Origin: an uncultured Bdellovibrionales bacterium | Lineage (GTDB): Bacteria > Patescibacteriota > Minisyncoccia > Moranbacterales > UBA1568 | Reading direction: 5' to 3' | DNA: 64,000 bases | Assembly (NCBI GenBank): GCA_964444815.1 | Contig: CAYUIR010000001.1 | Coordinates: 4,520 to 68,519 of the forward strand | Part shown: positions 5,326-62,911 of the stretch, piece after piece | Position numbering within the stretch: position 1 is the first letter of the stretch | Layout: each line of letters begins with the position of its first letter | Made by a program: the position numbers and the translations under genes | Notes under the pieces: generated by a model | What the model was told of the DNA's origin: nothing | The model's input: the letters and a program-made list of their open reading frames with translations, nothing else | Databases searched by the model: none

Positions 5326-6468
5326 TTGGTAACTATGCGTATAGCAGTTCAGGCGTCGGATCTCGATCATCGTCGCATCGATGGGACGCGAGTGTACCTC
5401 CGGGAGCTCTTGAAGCGTTTCGGTGAGCTCTCACCAGAGACGGACCTCACTCTCTATCACAAGGGTGAATTCAATCCGGTCCTGGCCCCGCCTGAAGCAT
5501 CCAATTATACCGCCGTATCACTGCCATTTCCACATGCCTGGATGCAGACTCGTTTTGCACTTGAGCTGTACCTCAATCGTCCGGACAAGTTGTTTCTCCC
5601 GATTCAAGCCGCTCCGATTCTCATGCCAGGGTCCGTGGAAGTGACAGCCACGATCCATGACCTTGCCTTCAAGCGCTTTCCAGAGACGTTCCCAAAGAGA
5701 GATTTGTGGAAGCTCAACTTTATGCTCGAGACGGCCGTGAAGCGGGCCGATAAGCTGATAGCCGTGTCAGAGTCGACCAAGCATGATCTCCTTGAATTCT
5801 TCCCGTCGCTCGCGGAGTCGCGGGTGCGCGTTATCCATCATGGCTTTGATGCAGAATTTTTCGGTGAGCGTGTTGGAGATGAGGTGTTGAACCCCTTACT
5901 AAGAAGCTATAACCTAAAAGCTAAAAGCTACGTATTGTACGTCGGCGCTCTCCAGCCGCGGAAGAACCTGGTCCGACTCATCGAGGCCTTTGGGGCGATG
6001 AAGCAATCGGTGCCAGAGGCCAAGCTCGTCCTCGCAGGGGAGGAGGCATGGCTCGCCGAGACGATTACTGATGCCTGGGAACAGAGTCTGTACCGTGATG
6101 ACATTGTCCTCCCGGGACGGGTATCGTTTGAGACGCTACGCGCACTCTATCAGGGGGCGCGGATATTTGCTTTTCCGTCGCTCTACGAGGGTTTTGGACT
6201 GCCGATACTCGAAGCCTTCGCTTCGGGCATTCCGGTCCTTACGGCCGAGAATTCAAGCTTGAGTGAGGTCGCAGGGGACGTCGCGCTCTACTGTCAGGCC
6301 ACTGATACTGCCGATATGGCAACCAAACTGGAAATGCTCTGGCGAGATGAGGCTCTTCGTGAGTCCTTGGTCGCTCGGGGGACTGCTCGTCTGACACAAT
6401 TTTCCTGGGACCGTTGTGCCCGTGAGACGTTAGATTATATCCTTGACAAAAACTCAAATTTGTCCTAG
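5326..6468 (+). CDS. glycosyltransferase family 4 (GT-B fold)
   Basis: 380 aa. The C-terminal EGFGLPILEAFASGIPVLT motif is the GT4 E-x7-E signature. Confidence 0.85.
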   Translation: MVTMRIAVQASDLDHRRIDGTRVYLRELLKRFGELSPETDLTLYHKGEFNPVLAPPEASNYTAVSLPFPHAWMQTRFALELYLNRPDKLFLPIQAAPILMPGSVEVTATIHDLAFKRFPETFPKRDLWKLNFMLETAVKRADKLIAVSESTKHDLLEFFPSLAESRVRVIHHGFDAEFFGERVGDEVLNPLLRSYNLKAKSYVLYVGALQPRKNLVRLIEAFGAMKQSVPEAKLVLAGEEAWLAETITDAWEQSLYRDDIVLPGRVSFETLRALYQGARIFAFPSLYEGFGLPILEAFASGIPVLTAENSSLSEVAGDVALYCQATDTADMATKLEMLWRDEALRESLVARGTARLTQFSWDRCARETLDYILDKNSNLS

Positions 6469-9065: not shown

Positions 9066-10214
9066 TTAGGCGCCACCAAAGCGAGCGAGGAGGCGCTGTT
9101 TGATTTGGGAGAGGAGGGTCAGCATGTTCTCTCGGTTCTTGGCTGTTTCAAATGAAGCCGTGATGGCATTCATATCGATAGCGGTGCCACTTCTGATAGA
9201 AAGTTCAAAATCATTACCATAGAGAGTAGGGAGGGCGATCGGGAGTTCACAGAGGAGTGCCGTACCCCAGACATTGGGTGTGAGCGTGCAGGAGAGAGTG
9301 GTTTCACTCGCCGTGGTAGAAACGAGGATTGGATAGGTAGTATGTGTGAGGAGAAAGTCACGGTATGGGCTAGCGGGCAACGGACGCTTGGTACCTTCTC
9401 CGATAATGAAGTAGGTATCATTGTCGATATCTCGGAGAATTGTCCCATCGGGATGCGCGGCACCAAGGAGGATGATGCGACCACGCTCATAGACACCGAG
9501 CTCTTCTTCGCTCACGCTCACGACATCTTCAAAGTGGTACCCGAGCGCGAGAAATATTTCGGCACTTCCCACCGGGCGCACCTCGGTCTCGCTCACCACG
9601 ATAAAGACACCGGTAGCGTTGCCGAGGAGCGAGCCGACGCGGAAACCGAGCCACTGCTCTGAGATGGGATAGAGAGTGAGGAGCGACCGATCGGCCGGTA
9701 CGGCTCGTCCCTCCGGGAGGCGCGAAAGGTAGGCGGCTTGGCTCACAAAGGGATAGAGTACACCATCACGGAGGGCGTAGTAGGTATCGTCGAGTCGGTA
9801 GGCGGTCTCGGTAGGGAAGTCAGTGACGGGTGCACCGGTCGGATACAAAAAACTCTGATACGAGCGCCGAACAGAAAAATCAAGCGTCTCGGGAAAGGCG
9901 GATTTCTTTTCGAGGTTGGCTCGGACGGAGAGGAGGGAGAAATCACCTACTACGGTGGTGTCAGCGATCATGCGACCACCGGCTTCGATCTTGCCATTTT
10001 CGCGAGGCGTAGCGTCAGGTGCTCGTGGATGGAGGATGGTGTTTTTGCTTGATCCAGGCGAGCGGAAATCAAACTGCTGGGTGATCACCGGAAAGAGGAC
10101 CCGGAGCGCCATATATATCGTGACCATGGCAATCAAGAGGTAGAGGAGGCCGCGGAGCGCGAGATACGTATGGCGCCAGGGCTTGGCAATGGGGAGCGGG
10201 TAGAGGAAAGACAT
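9066..10214 (-). CDS. hypothetical membrane-anchored protein (N-terminal TM helix plus ~340 aa extracytoplasmic domain)
   Basis: 382 aa with a single N-terminal hydrophobic helix (LLYLLIAMVTIYMALRVLF). No recognisable catalytic motif. Confidence 0.5.
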   Translation of the reverse strand: MSFLYPLPIAKPWRHTYLALRGLLYLLIAMVTIYMALRVLFPVITQQFDFRSPGSSKNTILHPRAPDATPRENGKIEAGGRMIADTTVVGDFSLLSVRANLEKKSAFPETLDFSVRRSYQSFLYPTGAPVTDFPTETAYRLDDTYYALRDGVLYPFVSQAAYLSRLPEGRAVPADRSLLTLYPISEQWLGFRVGSLLGNATGVFIVVSETEVRPVGSAEIFLALGYHFEDVVSVSEEELGVYERGRIILLGAAHPDGTILRDIDNDTYFIIGEGTKRPLPASPYRDFLLTHTTYPILVSTTASETTLSCTLTPNVWGTALLCELPIALPTLYGNDFELSIRSGTAIDMNAITASFETAKNRENMLTLLSQIKQRLLARFGGA

Positions 10215-10215
10215 A

Positions 10216-11994
10216 CTAGTAGAGTTGAAAAAGAGTGTTTTTGGTTTCTATCGTGGTCGCGGTGGGGAGACGGAGTGCATCAGAGAGCGTGAGGTTTTCG
10301 AATTGATTGAGGACAAAGTTGATAGATTTGACATAGACGAGGCGCTCACCAAAGACCGCTGCATAGCGAGACTGACTCTCTTCGGGCACGAGGAGGTAGA
10401 CGCGGGTGAAGCGACTGGTGTCGAGGGCAGCGAGGTCGTAGGGATTGAAGAAGTACACGGTATTTTTGCCGGAGAGGAATTGTCCGGGACCGGAGAGCAT
10501 GGTGAATCCGTCCCCGGTCGCATGGCGATCGACCAAGATGAGGTCCGTATCAGTGAAACCCTCGGTCACGGTCGCCACTTGTTCGCGTAGTCCGCGCGCT
10601 TCGGCATAGAACAGTTGGGAGCGCCAGGCCGGGAACTCGAGGATGAGGAGGCCAGCGATAATGAGCGAGACAAAGATGAGTCTCTTGCCACCAGGTTGTT
10701 CGATCGGGAGGGAGCGCTTTCTCGCAAAAAGGAGACCGATAGTGAGCGTGGTCGCGACGAGAAGCGTCGGAAAGAGAGTAAAGAGATAGCGCCTGAGCAT
10801 CCAGGGATGATCAAGCGTGATATTGGGGAGGAAGAGATAGAGAAATGTCGGGAGGGCGAGATAGGCCGGGAGGAGGAGCTCGTAGTGCTTGTATCTGACA
10901 AAGAGGAGGAGGCCAAAGAGTCCAAAGAGCGCGAGCGCGAGAAAGCCGTAGAGAAAAAAGACAGAACCAATATGGACGGAGCTCATATCGCCTAATACAC
11001 GGGCGTTTTCATCGAAGCGGCCGAGAAATTTGAGGAGCGCCTTGCCAATCATCTTGTAGTACGGCACATTCAAGAAAAAGTCACGGAGGAAGACAAAGAG
11101 AAACAAAAGTCCCGGGAGAATGAGGGTCTGCCAGGGAGCACTGCGCCAGAGGGCTCGACCTCGCGGATGGCAGAGGAGCAGGATGAGAGTCAATCCTAAA
11201 AAGGCAAATCCTTCGATGCGGGTAAAAGCGAAGAGGGAGCTAGAGAGGAGGATACTCACGTAGGCGAGTCGGGTGCCCTGGCGGAGGAAAAGCGTGAGCG
11301 AGTAGGCGAGGAAGACAAAGAGGAAGAGCGCCAGGTTTTCGGAGAGGGTAGACTTGGCGAACCAGTTAGGGAGGAAAGAGAAGAGGGCGAGGAGGAGTCC
11401 GGCCCAAGCATAAAACTGGTCGGCAAAGAGTCGAATCAATTGGTAGAGAAAAAAGAATGAGAGAAAGAGGAGGACGGCGTTCCCGATGGCATAGCCAGTG
11501 ACACCGAAGAGCGAGATGAAGCTCCCGAGCCAAGCGGTATAGGCGAGAGGGAATTGGGTGATGAGTGTGCCCTCCTTGGTGTAGGCAAAGCCAGGGAAGT
11601 TGAGAGCTGTCCCTTCACCGTAGATAGCAAAAAATGCCTCGCTTGCCGGAGAACTAAAGGGGAGGCGTGTTTCGGCTGCTAGGCGATAGGCAGCTTCGGC
11701 GATTGAGCCCTGATCACGTCCTGAGAAGAGCGTGGGCTCACTTGAGAGTGTCACCGTGAGAGTCGCAAAGAGGATGACCCCGAGGAGAATGAGGAGAGAC
11801 CAGTGTGAGCGTTTGGCGAGACGGTAGAGGATGAGGAGAGCGAGACCGAGGGAGAGGACGAAACCGACGGCTATGAGGGGAAAGAGAAACAGGCTCCCCA
11901 AGGTGAGGGTGAGTGCGAACCAGCCATAGACGACAAAGGTCAATCCAAAAAGGACGAGGAGACCATCGCTTTTCTCAAAATGAGGCAGTTTCAT
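10216..11994 (-). CDS. polytopic membrane protein, GT-C-like glycosyltransferase candidate (PMT/ArnT-like topology)
   Basis: About 12 TM helices followed by a ~130 aa soluble C-terminal domain. Start placed at MKLPHFE (11994) with GGAGG 4 nt upstream. The 85-codon extension in the track was rejected. Confidence 0.55.
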   Translation of the reverse strand: MKLPHFEKSDGLLVLFGLTFVVYGWFALTLTLGSLFLFPLIAVGFVLSLGLALLILYRLAKRSHWSLLILLGVILFATLTVTLSSEPTLFSGRDQGSIAEAAYRLAAETRLPFSSPASEAFFAIYGEGTALNFPGFAYTKEGTLITQFPLAYTAWLGSFISLFGVTGYAIGNAVLLFLSFFFLYQLIRLFADQFYAWAGLLLALFSFLPNWFAKSTLSENLALFLFVFLAYSLTLFLRQGTRLAYVSILLSSSLFAFTRIEGFAFLGLTLILLLCHPRGRALWRSAPWQTLILPGLLFLFVFLRDFFLNVPYYKMIGKALLKFLGRFDENARVLGDMSSVHIGSVFFLYGFLALALFGLFGLLLFVRYKHYELLLPAYLALPTFLYLFLPNITLDHPWMLRRYLFTLFPTLLVATTLTIGLLFARKRSLPIEQPGGKRLIFVSLIIAGLLILEFPAWRSQLFYAEARGLREQVATVTEGFTDTDLILVDRHATGDGFTMLSGPGQFLSGKNTVYFFNPYDLAALDTSRFTRVYLLVPEESQSRYAAVFGERLVYVKSINFVLNQFENLTLSDALRLPTATTIETKNTLFQLY

Positions 11995-17171: not shown

Positions 17172-17563
17172 CCAGAACAGATTGGATTATCGCGCGGCCA
17201 AGCCCTGAAAGGGGTCTGGAGCGAGGAAAGTCCGGACACTGAGCCACAGCGTAAGCAAGTGGCAAGGGTAATGGGTAACCCCCATACGCCGTGAGGCGCG
17301 AGGTGCGAGCAGAGACGCTCTTCTCCGAAAGGAGTGAGTATCCAGCAATGGATAAGTCTTCATATAAGTTCAGGGTTTACTCTGAGCGAAGTCGAAGAGT
17401 GAAACGGCTAAATCCTTACCTCGGTGCAAGGTCGTGCCTAGATCCTCTTGGAGCTCAAGAGGGGACGGGAGAACTGCAAAGATTCGGCTGGTAACAGTCG
17501 GACAAGATAAATGATAATCTCTGCTTTCGGGCAGAACAGAATCCGGCTTATAGATCTGTTTTG
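17172..17563 (+). ncRNA. rnpB: RNase P RNA, bacterial type A
   Basis: Both P4 strands are present: GAGGAAAGTCCGGAC at the 5' side and ACAGAATCCGGCTTAT at the 3' side. GGCTGGTAACAGTCGG parallels E. coli M1 GGCUGGUAACAGUCCG. A P1 helix is formed by CAGAACAGAT and ATCTGTTTTGG. Confidence 0.85.
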
Positions 17564-17610
17564 GAAAAGAGCGTCTAACAGCGAGAGTCCAACTCCTTAA
17601 GACTTTTAGA

Positions 17611-57057: not shown

Positions 57058-58584
57058 ATGCGTATCACTTGGAAGCAAACATGGCAGTGGCTCCTCGTAA
57101 TCGTGGTCCTCGGGCTGGGCCTCCGGCTCTACGGTATCGGTACCAATTCGTTTGTCGCGGATGAGTTCCTCGATATCAACTCAAGCTACGGCTATTTCCA
57201 GACGGGTACATGGAAGGCCTGGGATTTCAACTTTGGCGTGCCGGCCGTGATGAATGAGAATGATGCTCGCGATGAGCGCGCTTTTGTCTACAAGTGGCAG
57301 GTCGCCACACTCTTTCAGTTTGTGTCACCGACAGAGGGCCATGCTCGCCTGGTGAGTGTCGCCTGGGGTGTCATCTCGATTCTCGCTATGTTTTGGGCGG
57401 GCTACTTTTACACCCGTAAGAAATCTATTGGTCTCATCGCTGCTATACTCTTTGCAGTCAGTATCTCAGCGATTATCTTTGATCGGCGCCTGCGCATGTA
57501 TGCTATGTTTTTTCCGGTGTACCTCGCTTTGGCTACGGTTCTCTTTGCGGTCTTTGAGCGTGAGTATCAGGGTAAGGTAGCGTGGCTACGGCGGGTGTGG
57601 GAGCGATATGGCCTCAATATCTCGTATGCACTACCACTCCTCGCTCTCGTGACCCTCGGCGCGCTCGTACACGGACTATCCCTCAGCGTGATACCGGTCT
57701 TTGGGGTGTATGCGCTCGTGATGATGGTCCGCACGTGGCGAAAGGGAGGGCGTCTCATGACCAAGTATGGCATAGTTGTACTCTTGGGAATCCTTGGTGC
57801 CATTGGTGCCATCTTGTTTGCACCACAGTTGGTGCGTCTGGCTCTCGGCAGTGTCGTCTTCTTTGACGACCACTACTCATACTTTGGCTATGTGCTCCGT
57901 GATTTCGCTCATCCGCTTTTGGGTGCTCTCATTATCCTCTACGGTATCCGGGTGGCCTGGAAGCGTCTCGGCTTGACGCGTGAGGCACTGTGGCTCGCGC
58001 TCTCTCTTTTGGTGCCTCTTGCTATGGCCGTATGGCTCTGGCGACGCAATGCTGGTCCGCAGTACATATTTTTTGTGCAGTCATTTGCGCTCCTCCTTGC
58101 TTCTATCGGGGTGTATGGCTTGGCCAAGCTCGTGAAAGAGCGCTTCTCTGAGTGGGGACAACGGGGTCTCTTGGGAGTATTCCTCCTTTCGATGCTCCTT
58201 CTACCGAACTGGGGCTATTTTCTCGAGGAAAACAATACCTACCATGAGACGTCATCGGGGGGCAATCCGAATTATCGAAAGGTGTTTGACTATGTCAAGA
58301 AAAATAAATCAAATGAGGATGTGATTATCACTCGGAATTTCCGGAACTACTATCTCTCTGGCGCCAAGATGCCGGTCTACGACTTTGGCGGGGAACTGTC
58401 TGAGAGCAAATTTTCACTGGTGGAACTCGAGACTATCGTAGGCAAGCACCCACATGGCTGGGTAGTCCTTTCGACCAATGACTATGACTATATCTCGCGG
58501 GACGCTGAGCTGTATATCAAAAAGCGCATGGAGCTTGTGAGTAATGCCCAGGTCCGTGGTGCCATCGAGGTCTACCGCTGGTAG
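57058..58584 (+). CDS. GT-C glycosyltransferase (ArnT/PMT-like)
   Basis: 508 aa. Loop 1 reads FVADEFLD (DE motif), with about 11 TM helices and a C-terminal soluble domain. Confidence 0.6.
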   Translation: MRITWKQTWQWLLVIVVLGLGLRLYGIGTNSFVADEFLDINSSYGYFQTGTWKAWDFNFGVPAVMNENDARDERAFVYKWQVATLFQFVSPTEGHARLVSVAWGVISILAMFWAGYFYTRKKSIGLIAAILFAVSISAIIFDRRLRMYAMFFPVYLALATVLFAVFEREYQGKVAWLRRVWERYGLNISYALPLLALVTLGALVHGLSLSVIPVFGVYALVMMVRTWRKGGRLMTKYGIVVLLGILGAIGAILFAPQLVRLALGSVVFFDDHYSYFGYVLRDFAHPLLGALIILYGIRVAWKRLGLTREALWLALSLLVPLAMAVWLWRRNAGPQYIFFVQSFALLLASIGVYGLAKLVKERFSEWGQRGLLGVFLLSMLLLPNWGYFLEENNTYHETSSGGNPNYRKVFDYVKKNKSNEDVIITRNFRNYYLSGAKMPVYDFGGELSESKFSLVELETIVGKHPHGWVVLSTNDYDYISRDAELYIKKRMELVSNAQVRGAIEVYRW

Positions 58585-58597
58585 ACAGAGAAGGTGT

Positions 58598-58784
58598 GAG
58601 ATCCTGTACATTCTCTCATATCTTAAGAAAATGTTCAGATTTCGAGGGGAAGATCTTGAAAAGTGAGCGAGGGCTATATTCATAACCCGACGAGCTTTGA
58701 AAGATTTTACACCGAAATATGGACATTTTGTAAGATAAGCTCTTTTTGCTATTTCTATTGGCGTTGAGAGAATGTACAGGATCT
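58598..58784. repeat. 187 bp element bounded by 19 bp near-perfect inverted repeats (MITE-like or long structured RNA)
   Basis: GAGATCCTGTACATTCTCTC at 58598-58617 is the reverse complement of GAGAGAATGTACAGGATCT at 58766-58784 (19 of 20 positions). A nested second inverted-repeat pair is ATCTTAAGAAAATGT and ACATTTTGTAAGAT. Confidence 0.5.
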
Positions 58785-58790
58785 AAGAAA

Positions 58791-58830
58791 AAAGCCCGGG
58801 GTCCTCGCGCGGAGGGCCTCGGGTTGTTCG
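58791..58830. terminator. GC-rich hairpin with flanking A-run/T-run (likely bidirectional terminator)
   Basis: The sequence is AAAAAAGCCCGGGGTCCTCGCGCGGAGGGCCTCGGGTTGTT. On the minus strand it reads as hairpin followed by TTTTTT. Confidence 0.45.
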
Positions 58831-59073
58831 TGTGCCAGCTACCGGGTGATGGCCAGTGCAGACGTGAGACGGCGTCTGGCGTCTTCTGCGAGCAGAGCAT
58901 TGTGGGCAATCTGTCGACGCCACTGTTCGCTCCCTGTAACGAGGTTGGACCACCACTCAAAGGACCAGAGCCACAGGGACAAAGGAGTAGGTATCATCTT
59001 CGTCTCCCAATCGCACCAGGGTGGCGCGTCATGCCTTGAGTGTAGTCCCAAGCGAAAAAGGATGCAAGACCCT

Positions 59074-60549
59074 CTAAGATCCTCTTCGTAGGAGCTTCTG
59101 GAGCGGGGCGATATCAGTGTCACTGAGCTCCTTCACCAGACGGAGGTAGACGAAGTAGAGGGCAAAAAGGAAGCCACCTGAGAGGAAAAAGGAGATCGGA
59201 CCGTGAGGCAGGTATGGAGCTATAAGGGCAATCATAAGCGTGCCAAGGAGCGAGAGGAGGACGGTTCGTAAGGAGAGCTTCACATAAAAGTGTCGAGCGG
59301 TCGCCACCAGGATAGCAACCATGAGAAAAAAAGAAGTAATGGTCGTCGAGAGCGCCGCGCCGACGAGCCCAAAGACCGGGATCAAGAAGAGATTGAAGAG
59401 AATCATGAGGAGAAATCCGCCAGAGGCGAGATACATGGGAATTTTGACTAATCCAGCGCCATTTAGGGCAAAGGAGAGGACGTAAAAGACGGTGAGGAAT
59501 CCGACTCCAACCGCAAAAACACTCATGGGAGCGAGGGCCTCGGCATAACGGGCGCCATAGAAGAAATGAAGGACCTGAGATCCAAAGGCTATGAGAAGCG
59601 TTACCATCGGAAAGAGGAGAAAGGTCATGAGACGGAGAGAGCGGTTGACGAGGCTCTCGGTGCCAGCTGTGTCCGCTTCAGCCGTGGTTTTGGAGATAGC
59701 GGGGAGGAGGATGATAGTGAGCGCGTAAAAGAGGAAATAAGGGATGCGTCCGACGGTGATGGCGGCGTTGTAGATGCCGGTTAGGTAGTCACTACCGAGC
59801 ATACTCTTCACAAAGTAGAGGTCGAGGGTGAGGATAAGTTCATAGAAAAGGAGAAATGCAGTCAGTGGTCCCGCGTAGGCGAGGATGGTTTTGCCTGAGA
59901 AGAGCTCTACTTCTTTGCGTCTAGTGTCTCTTAGAGTTGGGAAATAGCGATGGGTGACCAAGAGGTCAAAGAGGATAGCTATCCCAAAGACAAAGAGCGG
60001 GGCGATGATATAGCCTGTGATGGCTCCTTCAACCCCAAAGATTGAGGCGAGAAGAACGATAAAGACCACCCGGCTGATTGCTCGCAGGGTTTTGAGGGCC
60101 GCTTGAACTCGGAAGAAGTGGAGCCCAGTAAAGTAGTAGAAATAAAACGAGGCGGCAGCAAAGGCGGGGATAATTAGTGAGGAGAGCTGAAAGAGCGGCG
60201 TAAGCGATGGATCGCGGAGGACCCAAGCAATAAGCGGTGACGCGAAGAAGAAAACGGCGGTCACTGAGAGCATGAGGATGGCCTGGAGGCGGAGCGCTTG
60301 GTACTTGATGCCGAGGATTTTCCCCGGGGCGGACTCAAAGATCTCGCTTAGGTATTTGGACATGGCCGTGGGGATGCCGTTTCCGATCAGGATGATAATC
60401 ATGGTGGTGAGCGTCACCACGAGACCATAGCGACCATACTCCTCAGGGCCGAGGATGCGGCCGAGTGACGACTGGATGATGTAGCCACCGATGTTGTAGA
60501 TGACCTCTGAGAGGGTCAACCACACCAATGCTTGAGAGAATTTTTTCAT
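59074..60549 (-). CDS. Wzx-like polysaccharide flippase (MOP superfamily)
   Basis: 491 aa with about 14 TM helices. Confidence 0.7.
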   Translation of the reverse strand: MKKFSQALVWLTLSEVIYNIGGYIIQSSLGRILGPEEYGRYGLVVTLTTMIIILIGNGIPTAMSKYLSEIFESAPGKILGIKYQALRLQAILMLSVTAVFFFASPLIAWVLRDPSLTPLFQLSSLIIPAFAAASFYFYYFTGLHFFRVQAALKTLRAISRVVFIVLLASIFGVEGAITGYIIAPLFVFGIAILFDLLVTHRYFPTLRDTRRKEVELFSGKTILAYAGPLTAFLLFYELILTLDLYFVKSMLGSDYLTGIYNAAITVGRIPYFLFYALTIILLPAISKTTAEADTAGTESLVNRSLRLMTFLLFPMVTLLIAFGSQVLHFFYGARYAEALAPMSVFAVGVGFLTVFYVLSFALNGAGLVKIPMYLASGGFLLMILFNLFLIPVFGLVGAALSTTITSFFLMVAILVATARHFYVKLSLRTVLLSLLGTLMIALIAPYLPHGPISFFLSGGFLFALYFVYLRLVKELSDTDIAPLQKLLRRGS

Positions 60550-61384: not shown

Positions 61385-62911
61385 TTAGTACATGATGACT
61401 GAGATAGGCTCAAGTTTGACGACAGGCTTGACGACATTATTTGCGACGACGCTTTCAATGACATCTTCGGCACGTTTGTAGTGCGATGAATCCTGTTCGA
61501 TTACCTTGGAGGAGCGACCATTGTAGAGTTTAACACCCCGGGTAGCCAATTTCTCATGGAGAGCTTCTTTACTCTCTGGTACGACATCGTCTGATTTCTT
61601 GACTGACTTACCAGCTCCGTGATTACAGGAGTAAAAGCTCGAGTCATTACCGTCTTGGCCGACGCAGAGATAGGCCTCGGTACTCATGGAGGTCGGAATA
61701 AAAGCCGGCTCGCCAGTGTCCTTGAATGTCGGGTGAGTGGTCATGCGACTTGGACCATAGGCGCGACTGGTGCCATTGCGGTGCACCCACACATTCTTAC
61801 CGTAGTGTTCTTCTTGGGAAACAAGGATATGAGGCATGTCGTAGAGGAGATCGGCCTCGATGGTCCTCCCCAGCACTTTCTCGGCCGTAGTGATGAAATT
61901 ATGCGTGATGGTGGCACGGTTGGCGTGAGCAAAGTTGGAGCACGCGCGTCTTGCTGCCATATAGAGCCGGCCGTCTTCGCCAGCGCCATCAAAGGTGATG
62001 AGTGGTTCAGCCTTGCCAAAATCCGAGGCACGAATCTTGTCGGCTATACGAGCGATCGTTTTCTTGAAAGGAGTGAGCCAGAAGAAGCGACCAATGTTCA
62101 TGAGGATGGCCGTCGAGAGGTGCTCACGCTTTTTGGCGGTAAACATGTACATTGTGTACTGACCGAGGATGCCTGAGCCACAGTGAACCATGAGGATGTA
62201 CTGGCCTTTGCGGAGGTTGAATCGCGCTGCTACCTCTGGGTCAACGACGTCAGTCACCTTCATGAGATCGAGGAAGTGGTTGCCGGCTGCGCCGATGATG
62301 CCCGAGCGGAACTGAGCAAAAAAGAGAAAGAGGGGCGGGATGATATTCATGATGCCCCGACGGGTAGGCGCCTCGTCAAAGAAGTTGCCTCGGTCAATGC
62401 TGTTCTCCGCTTCGTGTTTCGTCTTGATGCCGAGGTACTCGATGAGGGGAGCGATACCGAGGCGGCCGATATCGACAATCACTCGGAAAGGAAGGACTGT
62501 GCCGACTACTTTTTTGGTCGGGACCGTCTTGGTTGCTTTCTGGAAAATTCGGTCTATTTCCTCTGGGGTAATATTGGTGTCATAGAGGTCGAGCCGGACG
62601 AGACGCATCCCACAGGCCGGGTCACTGTCGTTCACCTGGGGAAGGATGTACTGCTCGGAAGCGACTGTGGTGCCCGTGGCGTTTTTGCGACCGGGCTTGG
62701 AGTGTACATCCGCCATGGCCGCGACGTGATGAAAGATGCAACCATTGGCTGCCACGCTCTCCAGTTGTTTCATGGTCTCGTCACCGGGCATGAGCTTGTC
62801 ACCCACATGAAAAACAACCGGAACTTTCATCTTGTCCGTTTTGAATTCGCTTTTATGAGGGGAGAGTTTAGTAATATTTGATTCGTACATAGAGATTTTG
62901 GTGAGTTTCAC
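61385..62911 (-). CDS. rtcB: RtcB-family RNA ligase
   Basis: Motifs ADVHSKPG, FDGAGEDG, HANR and NHGAGK (the NHGAGR position) are present. The start is GTG 62911 or ATG 62890. Confidence 0.85.
   Translation of the reverse strand: MKLTKISMYESNITKLSPHKSEFKTDKMKVPVVFHVGDKLMPGDETMKQLESVAANGCIFHHVAAMADVHSKPGRKNATGTTVASEQYILPQVNDSDPACGMRLVRLDLYDTNITPEEIDRIFQKATKTVPTKKVVGTVLPFRVIVDIGRLGIAPLIEYLGIKTKHEAENSIDRGNFFDEAPTRRGIMNIIPPLFLFFAQFRSGIIGAAGNHFLDLMKVTDVVDPEVAARFNLRKGQYILMVHCGSGILGQYTMYMFTAKKREHLSTAILMNIGRFFWLTPFKKTIARIADKIRASDFGKAEPLITFDGAGEDGRLYMAARRACSNFAHANRATITHNFITTAEKVLGRTIEADLLYDMPHILVSQEEHYGKNVWVHRNGTSRAYGPSRMTTHPTFKDTGEPAFIPTSMSTEAYLCVGQDGNDSSFYSCNHGAGKSVKKSDDVVPESKEALHEKLATRGVKLYNGRSSKVIEQDSSHYKRAEDVIESVVANNVVKPVVKLEPISVIMY

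Follow-up and report, generated by a model that had tools for sequence, protein, structure and literature searches.

Small palindromic repeats of bacterial genomes form several well-described families. The ERIC, Correia (NEMIS) and RUP/BOX repeats, of Enterobacteria, Neisseria and Streptococcus, respectively, are imperfect palindromes of about 100-200 base pairs (bp), which occupy transcribed intergenic positions near gene ends. They are predicted to form long RNA hairpins, occur sporadically between related genomes, and reach tens to hundreds of copies per genome. Other small repeats are miniature inverted-repeat transposable elements (MITEs) derived from IS5- and IS1182-type transposons and mobilised in trans. 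The genomes of the candidate phyla radiation (CPR), or Patescibacteria, are small and compact, and they are thought to be poor in mobile DNA. A limited search of the full-text literature for MITEs in Patescibacteria gave only incidental mentions and no study of such elements. The present work concerns a 186-bp foldback element in a Moranbacterales genome (assembly GCA_964444815.1, contig CAYUIR010000001.1), of which a stretch of 64,000 nucleotides (nt), called here the window, was analysed. The element lies in a 489-nt gap between two convergent genes, encoding a membrane protein of 508 amino acids (aa) on the plus strand and a polysaccharide flippase on the minus strand. This gap is very probably composite, consisting of a MITE with IS1182/IS5-type ends, a two-way terminator, and a gene for a 52-aa protein.

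Structure of the foldback element

The element is bounded by two terminal arms of 20 nt that are 100% complementary to each other, and no such pair appeared in 100 dinucleotide-preserving shuffles of the window. A first-pass annotation of this DNA had reported a 19-bp near-perfect inverted repeat at this place; the repeat is real and even better than described, as it is a perfect 20-mer. Nested inverted repeats, also proposed at that stage, were confirmed inside the element at 58628-58644/58713-58729 (88%) and at 58619-58630/58726-58737 (83%), and the pairing extends inward from the terminal arms. Folded as RNA, the region 58590-58835 reaches -105.8 kcal/mol on the plus strand (z = -9.8) and -78.6 kcal/mol on the minus strand (z = -8.0). 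The corresponding values for the element alone are -76.2 and -62.3 kcal/mol. Of the earlier suggestion of a long bulged RNA stem, the predicted fold is borne out, and a dedicated RNA function is not favoured by the evidence. An apical hairpin core with GA/GA internal loops is common to this copy and to one of the homologous copies described below, and a pyrimidine-rich segment of the right arm is left unpaired (Table 1).

The coding capacity of the element is negligible, as its longest internal open reading frames (ORFs) comprise 29 and 34 aa and have no family matches. In Rfam, searched at permissive as well as gathering thresholds, no relevant family for the element was found. The best match had E = 0.068, far under its gathering score, and the top matches were microRNA-like or long-non-coding-RNA-like, with 17-24 bits against thresholds of 40-135. 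A hammerhead-like reading of the sequence CCGACGAG was dropped: there was no hammerhead match at E <= 10, the U4 position is changed, and stem II is lacking.

Insertion into a variable slot

The junction was compared with loci of other genomes, designated by L-numbers; the Moranbacteria set amounts to about 775 kb from 80 genomes. Locus L004 belongs to a 96% relative and L009 to a 72% relative, with L008 and L023 standing at 80-81%. In a blastn comparison with L004, window positions 58300-58583 correspond to 9243-9526 (94.7%) and positions 58785-59300 to 10567-11077 (89%), with homology picking up again precisely at the right end of the element. Junctions were taken from blastn coordinates and read by eye because MAFFT misplaces gaps across large indels.

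Neither the element nor any gene occupies this place in L008, where the junction reads ...CGCTGGTAAAGAGAGATGTGAAAAAAGAAAAAGCCCGGGG, and L023 is alike. The window junction reads ...CGCTGGTAGACAGAGAAGGTGTG[186-bp element]AAGAAAAAAGCCCGGGG. As the orthologous site is empty in these two relatives, the element is an insertion, and on this reading of the junctions it is a clean one of 186 bp relative to the gene-less allele. Other relatives carry a gene in the same slot. This gene, encoding a Metallophos (PF00149) protein of about 340 aa, is present in L004-L007, L009, L010 and L070, and in the closest relatives (96-97% protein identity) it stands between the stop codon and the terminator, at the position of the MITE. 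These alleles mark the stretch from the 508-aa gene to the terminator as a variable slot in the lineage, holding nothing, the Metallophos gene, or the MITE. The window spacer that follows the stop codon resembles that of the gene-less 81% relative rather than that of the 96% relative, which hints at recombination or at repeated gain and loss in the history of the slot.

Copies at other sites

A covariance model made from the window copy alone (R1) retrieved two further copies from the Moranbacteria loci. The copy in L029 (8412-8595; 88.8 bits, E = 2.5e-18) is full length, including the 27-nt segment, and the other lies in L035 (6231-6069; 60 bits, E = 1.7e-11). A second model (R2), made from three sequences, matched a 144-bp stretch in L207 (5741-5884; 54 bits, E ~1e-11). 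This locus is a high-GC contig bearing GH2-like and aldo-keto-reductase genes, and for that reason it is not regarded as CPR; its copy has the same ends and a different interior.

The window, L029 and L035 copies sit at three different junctions. The L029 copy has the start codon of a Tmk-like gene on one side and a divergent gene on the other, and in L038 the flanks of this place abut, forming an empty site. The copy in L035 directly adjoins the flippase stop codon and is oriented opposite to the cluster. At 6230-6233 of L035, this stop codon (TAG, minus strand) takes its bases from two sources, the final base of the MITE and the first two of its TAA duplication, so that the insertion re-made the end of the gene. 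Locus L031 was considered as an empty site for the L035 copy and rejected, since a truncated copy is present at that position.

In the three copies taken together, 93% of the cells are paired and 28 of the 64 pairs are changed on both sides. This level of pairing and covariation was reached in 0 of 500 shuffles, and slid registers were only 30-51% paired. The alignment behind these counts was fitted to the structure of the model; thus, they show that the foldback has been maintained, and not why. Moreover, the better-folding strand, which also has more G-U pairs (4 versus 2), is the same homologous one in the window copy and in that of L035.

Beyond these loci, the element appears to be rare. 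The copy-number check that the first-pass annotation had proposed, applied to the window, revealed no second copy in these 64 kb, equivalent to about 5-10% of the genome in a typical CPR bacterium. No match to the exact 20-mer end was present in GTDB species genomes or in JGI metagenomes, and none to an 18-mer of it in IMG/VR. Its absence from three public collections indicates that the sub-type of the window is rare. The central conserved block was not found in IMG/VR viral contigs either. In viral contigs, the end motif occurred in 59 stretches, all of them single, with no inverse end above 13/19, which is the chance level, and a sequence profile detected no family member among these stretches.

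Other AT-rich foldbacks occur in intergenic regions of Moranbacteria, namely, in L056 (7187-7319), L064 (5047-5146), L058 (3808-3971) and L073 (7499-7861), and further ones in L074 (3870-3961) and L076 (7860-7980). All six hairpins were considered as members of the family and rejected, being unrelated in sequence. The L074 and L076 foldbacks are 77% identical to each other over 124 nt yet lie at different junctions, which points to at least one further family of mobile hairpins in Moranbacteria.

Transposon-like ends and candidate target-site duplications

The ends of the family, of the GAGCCTGT... type, match those of IS1182-family and IS5-like transposons. In L029 and L035 they read AGAG[TT/CC]TGT[C/T]GGAAAAGTC. 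The JGI metagenomes were scanned with the motif AGAGYYTGTYGRAAAAKTC, and the results are to be read as those among the matches listed, with most single matches due to chance. They include paired-end elements of 120-150 bp in L207, L141, L181, L168, L206 and L105, as well as two elements with an inverse end beyond a transposase gene. One of the latter, in L121, is about 1.9 kb long and encodes a transposase scoring 291 bits on the IS1182-family model NF033551 (cutoff 270). The other, in L186, measures about 984 bp and encodes an IS5-like transposase with a DDE_Tnp_1 domain.

Since loci of this kind had been picked by the motif itself, an independent check was made with the closest relative of the L121 transposase in a plasmid database, chosen by protein similarity only. 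This locus, L269, comes from Pseudoalteromonas piscicida (NZ_CP074588). It has inverted ends, GAGGCTGTAGAATTAC and GAGCCTGTAGAATAAC, placed 1.84 kb apart and of the form GAG[G/C]CTGTAGAAT, and is flanked by a perfect 3-bp duplication (GTT/GTT). The window end GATCCTGTACATTCTC agrees with the L269 end at 11 of 16 bases, with GA-CCTGTA-A-T shared. For the family, whose L029 and L035 motif recurs in L121 and L186, the ends are shared with autonomous transposase-encoding elements.

Flanking duplications were scored with the ends taken as GAG...CTC. They are perfect in L035 and L207 (TAA/TAA in both) and in L141 (ACAA/ACAA, 4 bp); in the window (TGA/TAA) and in L029 (ATA/TTA), two of the three bases agree. 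Target sites of three bases have been reported for IS1031-group members of the IS5 family (PMC2516522). GAG...CTC ends combined with a 3-bp duplication gave a better fit than a TA or 8-bp duplication, or than AGA...TCT ends without any duplication. A scheme of the IS6/IS26 type, with CTGTTGCAAA ends and an 8-bp duplication, was rejected because no copy is flanked by an 8-bp repeat and the transposases found are IS1182-like or IS5-like.

Interpretation of the element and competing explanations

The best-supported reading of the element is a MITE with ends of the IS1182/IS5 type (GAnCCTGT...). This reading is preferred because related genomes have empty sites, copies exist at other loci, the ends are IS1182/IS5-like, and some copies are flanked by 3-bp duplications. 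The element is small and non-coding, it has terminal inverted repeats and shows insertion polymorphism, and its family shares ends with transposase-bearing elements. A MITE had already been proposed in the first-pass annotation, and the proposal gains support on all these points; no second copy appeared in the 64-kb window.

According to this scheme, a DDE transposase supplied in trans would have bound both terminal inverted repeats and pasted the element into a 3-bp staggered cut at T[G/A]A, 12 nt beyond the end of the 508-aa reading frame and immediately ahead of the terminator's A-tract. As this site lies between the stop codon and the A-tract, the insertion falls into the 3' untranslated part of the plus-strand operon, with the neighbouring genes and the terminator left intact. 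The copy is probably immobile now, because no transposase of that type is encoded nearby. In a transcript of the region, the terminator would be preceded by a hairpin of about -76 kcal/mol, which could alter the stability of the 3' end or its processing by RNase III. On the opposite strand, the small gene, located downstream of the flippase gene and equipped with its own ribosome-binding site and leader, would end at the same two-way terminator.

Several observations weigh against a MITE. The window holds a single copy, and the exact 20-mer end occurs in none of the three collections, so that the multiplicity expected of a classic MITE is not seen. The trinucleotides flanking the element differ, and its ends share only GA-CCTGT with transposon ends. 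The results of the scan for transposon ends are those among the matches listed, most single ones being chance. In addition, neither the window nor the approximately 775 kb of Moranbacteria loci contains a homologue of the L121 or L186 transposase. The hairpin has been kept at full length across the copies, as the paired changes demonstrate, and transposase binding at the ends does not account for a full-length palindrome. Finally, the window and L035 copies show a slight preference for one and the same homologous strand, so that selection acting on a transcript is conceivable. The full-length palindrome could stem from the origin of the element, from arm-to-arm correction, or from such selection.

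A combination of both ideas, namely, a mobile hairpin family whose palindrome is preserved along its entire length by selection at the transcript level, and not only at its transposase-binding ends, is considered unlikely. If true, this would mean that the family crosses phylum boundaries, occurring in CPR Moranbacteria as well as in an unrelated high-GC bacterium, and that it is retained in 3' untranslated regions by altering the stability or processing of mRNA. It would, in effect, be a portable RNA module in CPR genomes, which are otherwise streamlined and poor in repeats.

Less likely still is that the hairpin is a dedicated structured RNA, such as a cis-acting stabiliser of the 3' untranslated region, an RNase III site, or a small RNA, selected at the level of the transcript, with ends that are secondary or coincidental. 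The very strong fold, the excess of paired changes over shuffles and slid registers, and the apical core with its GA/GA loops, kept between the window and L035, are all as such an RNA would have them. Two sense-oriented copies also lie just 3' of a gene, behind the 508-aa gene in the window and behind the flippase gene in L035, and the shared strand preference keeps this possibility alive at a low probability. However, no Rfam family corresponds to the element, and its occurrence is sporadic, with three copies in the whole Moranbacteria set, at different sites and with empty orthologous sites. The L029 copy stands upstream of the promoter-like region of a plus-strand gene and antisense to the Tmk-like gene, and hence orientation is inconsistent. 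Furthermore, a copy with the same ends and another interior is present in an unrelated high-GC organism, and the ends match those of real transposons. The paired changes themselves were counted in an alignment fitted to the structure, and any foldback DNA would show them.

It is very improbable that the gap is only a large, chance-rich terminator region in which the palindrome arose as a lineage-specific accident. The single copy in the window and the absence of the exact end from the three public collections are what this explanation would have in its favour. It is refuted by the homologous copies, which extend over the full length (E = 1e-11 to 1e-18) at other sites in other genomes, and it also conflicts with the perfect 20-nt inverted repeat, unmatched in the shuffles, and with the clean indel boundaries relative to L008 and L023.

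The faintest candidate, hardly credible, is a decayed remnant of the Metallophos gene with a palindrome formed at the point of deletion, as by template switching: close relatives do carry that gene in exactly this slot, and an upstream in-frame ATG at 58544 is kept, though inside the 508-aa gene, but the idea is largely refuted by sensitive blastn, in which 58585-58784 showed no similarity on either strand to the Metallophos region of L004, L009 or L008 (best matches in these loci at E >= 0.07, all at unrelated places), by the spacer and junction, which match the gene-less L008/L023 allele, by the homologues of the element at unrelated sites in other genomes, and by the 240-nt tract beyond the terminator, whose counterpart in relatives is the region after the Metallophos gene and not the gene itself.

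Terminator and small gene

The element is followed by a GC-rich hairpin, which is most plainly read as an intrinsic terminator that is conserved and, by prediction, serves both convergent operons. On the minus strand, the small gene stops 14 nt ahead of the hairpin, and the stem (58824-58794) is followed by the T-run TTTTTTCTT. Read on the plus strand, the hairpin comes after the 508-aa gene, or after the Metallophos gene in relatives, and has the weak tail TTGTTCGT. Conservation of the stem extends to L004, L008, L023 and L018, with altered inner pairs and loop; G-U pairs of the plus-strand stem become A-C mismatches on the minus strand. A simple consensus terminator scanner did not list the hairpin. 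It had been described earlier as flanked by an A-run and a T-run. The hairpin itself and the A-run upstream of it on the plus strand stand, whereas a plus-strand T-run does not, since only the weak tail is found there and the true T-run is on the minus strand.

The remaining part of the gap is a GC-rich tract of about 240 nt. Its presence and composition agree with the first-pass annotation, which had left it unexplained, without a convincing ORF, and had raised the idea of a decayed gene. In fact, the tract contains a conserved minus-strand ORF of 52 aa and its leader. The ORF starts with the ATG at 58997, and the sequence GGGAGA (59008-59003) lies 5 nt upstream of it; homologous ORFs in L008, L018 and L015 are preceded by ribosome-binding sites of the AAGGAG type. 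Identity of the protein is 98% in L004, L010 and L070, 74% in L008, 42% in L018, and 36% in L015. Compared with L004, nine of the ten nucleotide differences fall at third codon positions, and the ratio of nonsynonymous to synonymous changes (pN/pS) is 0.04; compared with L008, it is 0.24. The L008 homologue has been called as a 52-aa gene, and the protein collection holds one 52-aa cluster for this protein. No Pfam family was found for it. The protein has a hydrophobic, Trp-rich N-terminus and a charged, helix-like C-terminal half; its N-terminal WLW/FEWW segment may enter the membrane beside the flippase.

In the leader, the block TACACTCAAGGCATGAC...GGTGCG (TACACTCRAGG...GGTGCG) is shared with L008 and L018. 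It may represent a promoter or leader, possibly with a -10-like element. Taken together, the coding pattern and conservation indicate that the tract is an intact, conserved small protein gene plus its leader, and not a decayed gene. Its homologue in relatives is the corresponding tract, not the Metallophos gene. The CGTCT direct repeat noted earlier does exist; it is located within the 52-aa ORF, where it forms part of the codons for D-A-R-R-R-L.

Table 1. Positions of features at the junction in the window.
Feature	Position	Strand	Remarks
508-aa membrane protein gene (the GT-C gene of the first-pass annotation)	57058..58584	+	Conserved across Candidatus Moranbacteria
14-nt spacer ACAGAGAAGGTGTG after the stop codon	58585..58598	+	Resembles the L008 empty allele AGAGAGATGTG, not the Metallophos-bearing L004 allele
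Candidate left target-site duplication TGA	58597..58599	.	Ends taken as GA...TC; by analogy with L035 and L207 (TAA/TAA) and L269 (GTT/GTT)
186-bp foldback element	58599..58784	+	Non-coding; putative MITE with IS1182-type ends; site empty in L008 and L023
Left terminal inverted repeat AGATCCTGTACATTCTCTCA	58599..58618	+	20 nt
Apical hairpin core GAGCGAGGGCTATATTCATAACCCGACGAGCTTTGAA	58664..58703	+	Block best conserved with the L035 copy
Unpaired pyrimidine-rich 27-nt segment of the right arm	58738..58764	+	Present in the L029 copy, absent in L035
Right terminal inverted repeat	58765..58784	-	Perfect complement of the left repeat
Candidate right target-site duplication TAA	58784..58786	.	2/3 match to the left copy
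Predicted two-way intrinsic terminator	58788..58824	.	A6 tract (U-run on the minus strand) and GC hairpin 58794-58824; 13-bp stem, loop GCGCG (5 nt)
Unannotated 52-aa protein gene, MIPTPLSLWLWSFEWWSNLVTGSEQWRRQIAHNALLAEDARRRLTSALAITR	58839..58997	-	Shine-Dalgarno sequence, conserved frame, low pN/pS
Leader of the small gene	58998..59073	-	76 nt between the start codon and the flippase stop codon; Shine-Dalgarno sequence and conserved block
Polysaccharide flippase gene	59074..60549	-	Polysacc_synt, plus MurJ-like and MATE-like matches

Neighbouring genes and genomic context

The spacer between the two convergent genes is unusually long, as had been noted before; junctions between large ORFs elsewhere in the window are mostly short. 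The 508-aa protein has no Pfam match of its own, and two genes with PMT_2 domains (GT-C fold) precede its gene. Its homologues belong to Candidatus Moranbacteria/Moraniibacteriota of the CPR/Patescibacteria. The convergent pair formed by the 508-aa and flippase genes is kept in most of the 80 Moranbacteria genomes fetched, with a spacing from about 60 nt to more than 2 kb. In another Moranbacteria genome (L062), a 23-nt near-palindrome is repeated four times between these two genes (5452-5474, 5695-5717, 5971-5993 and 6164-6186), at spacings of about 190-280 nt.

The junction region is identical in three assemblies (Logan SRR10036080, Logan SRR10036081 and GCA_013565575.1), and therefore it is not an artefact of a single assembly. 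The contig of the last of these (L003; JACCDM011286831.1) breaks off within the 186-bp element, at window position ~58743. Assemblers produce breaks of this kind at repeats and strong palindromes, and the break is no proof as to copy number.

Elsewhere in the window, a class A RNase P RNA at 17174-17566 (plus strand; 106 bits against a gathering score of 100) was the sole Rfam family detected, and the 64 kb yielded no tRNA gene. The G+C content falls to 0.44-0.49 in a block of about 30 kb (~18000-50000), compared with 0.51-0.55 in its flanks. The gene for RtcB is intact (508 aa) at 61385-62911; in the 96% relative (JGI sample 3300056624), it is split into fragments of 197, 184 and 92 aa at L004 13014-14603.

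Comparison with known systems and significance

With its IS1182-type ends, its empty sites and its decaying copies, this MITE family would indicate that such elements reach Moranbacteria and persist in them, and the covariance model described here may be used for counting further copies of the family. The variable slot sits within a conserved cluster for cell-surface glycosylation, to which a conserved, previously unannotated 52-aa protein linked to the flippase gene is now added. For specialists in mobile elements, nothing in these results is unexpected.

When compared with Rho-independent two-way terminators, the predicted terminator has the same GC-rich stem of 13 bp, the same A- and T-tracts as flanks, and the same position between convergent operons, and it is conserved with changed inner pairs. 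It differs in the plus-strand tail UUGUUCGU, which is a poor U-tract, in the A-C mismatches on the minus strand, and in having been missed by the scanner.

The element resembles the ERIC, Correia and RUP/BOX repeats in the size of the palindrome, the intergenic setting at gene ends, the predicted RNA hairpin and the sporadic occurrence. In contrast to these families, with which it has no sequence similarity, it matches no Rfam-curated motif and occurs as one copy per ~10-64 kb sampled.

The closest parallel is with bacterial MITEs derived from IS5 and IS1182 and mobilised in trans. The window element differs from these in being present as one copy in 64 kb, in flanking triplets that are one base apart, in having no partner transposase among the Moranbacteria loci, and in being palindromic over its full length rather than at the ends only. 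It shares with them its small size, its lack of coding capacity, the perfect 20-bp terminal inverted repeats, and the presence or absence at orthologous sites, with different intergenic positions across genomes. Ends of the type seen in L121, L269 and L186, and 3-bp duplications in several copies, complete this likeness.

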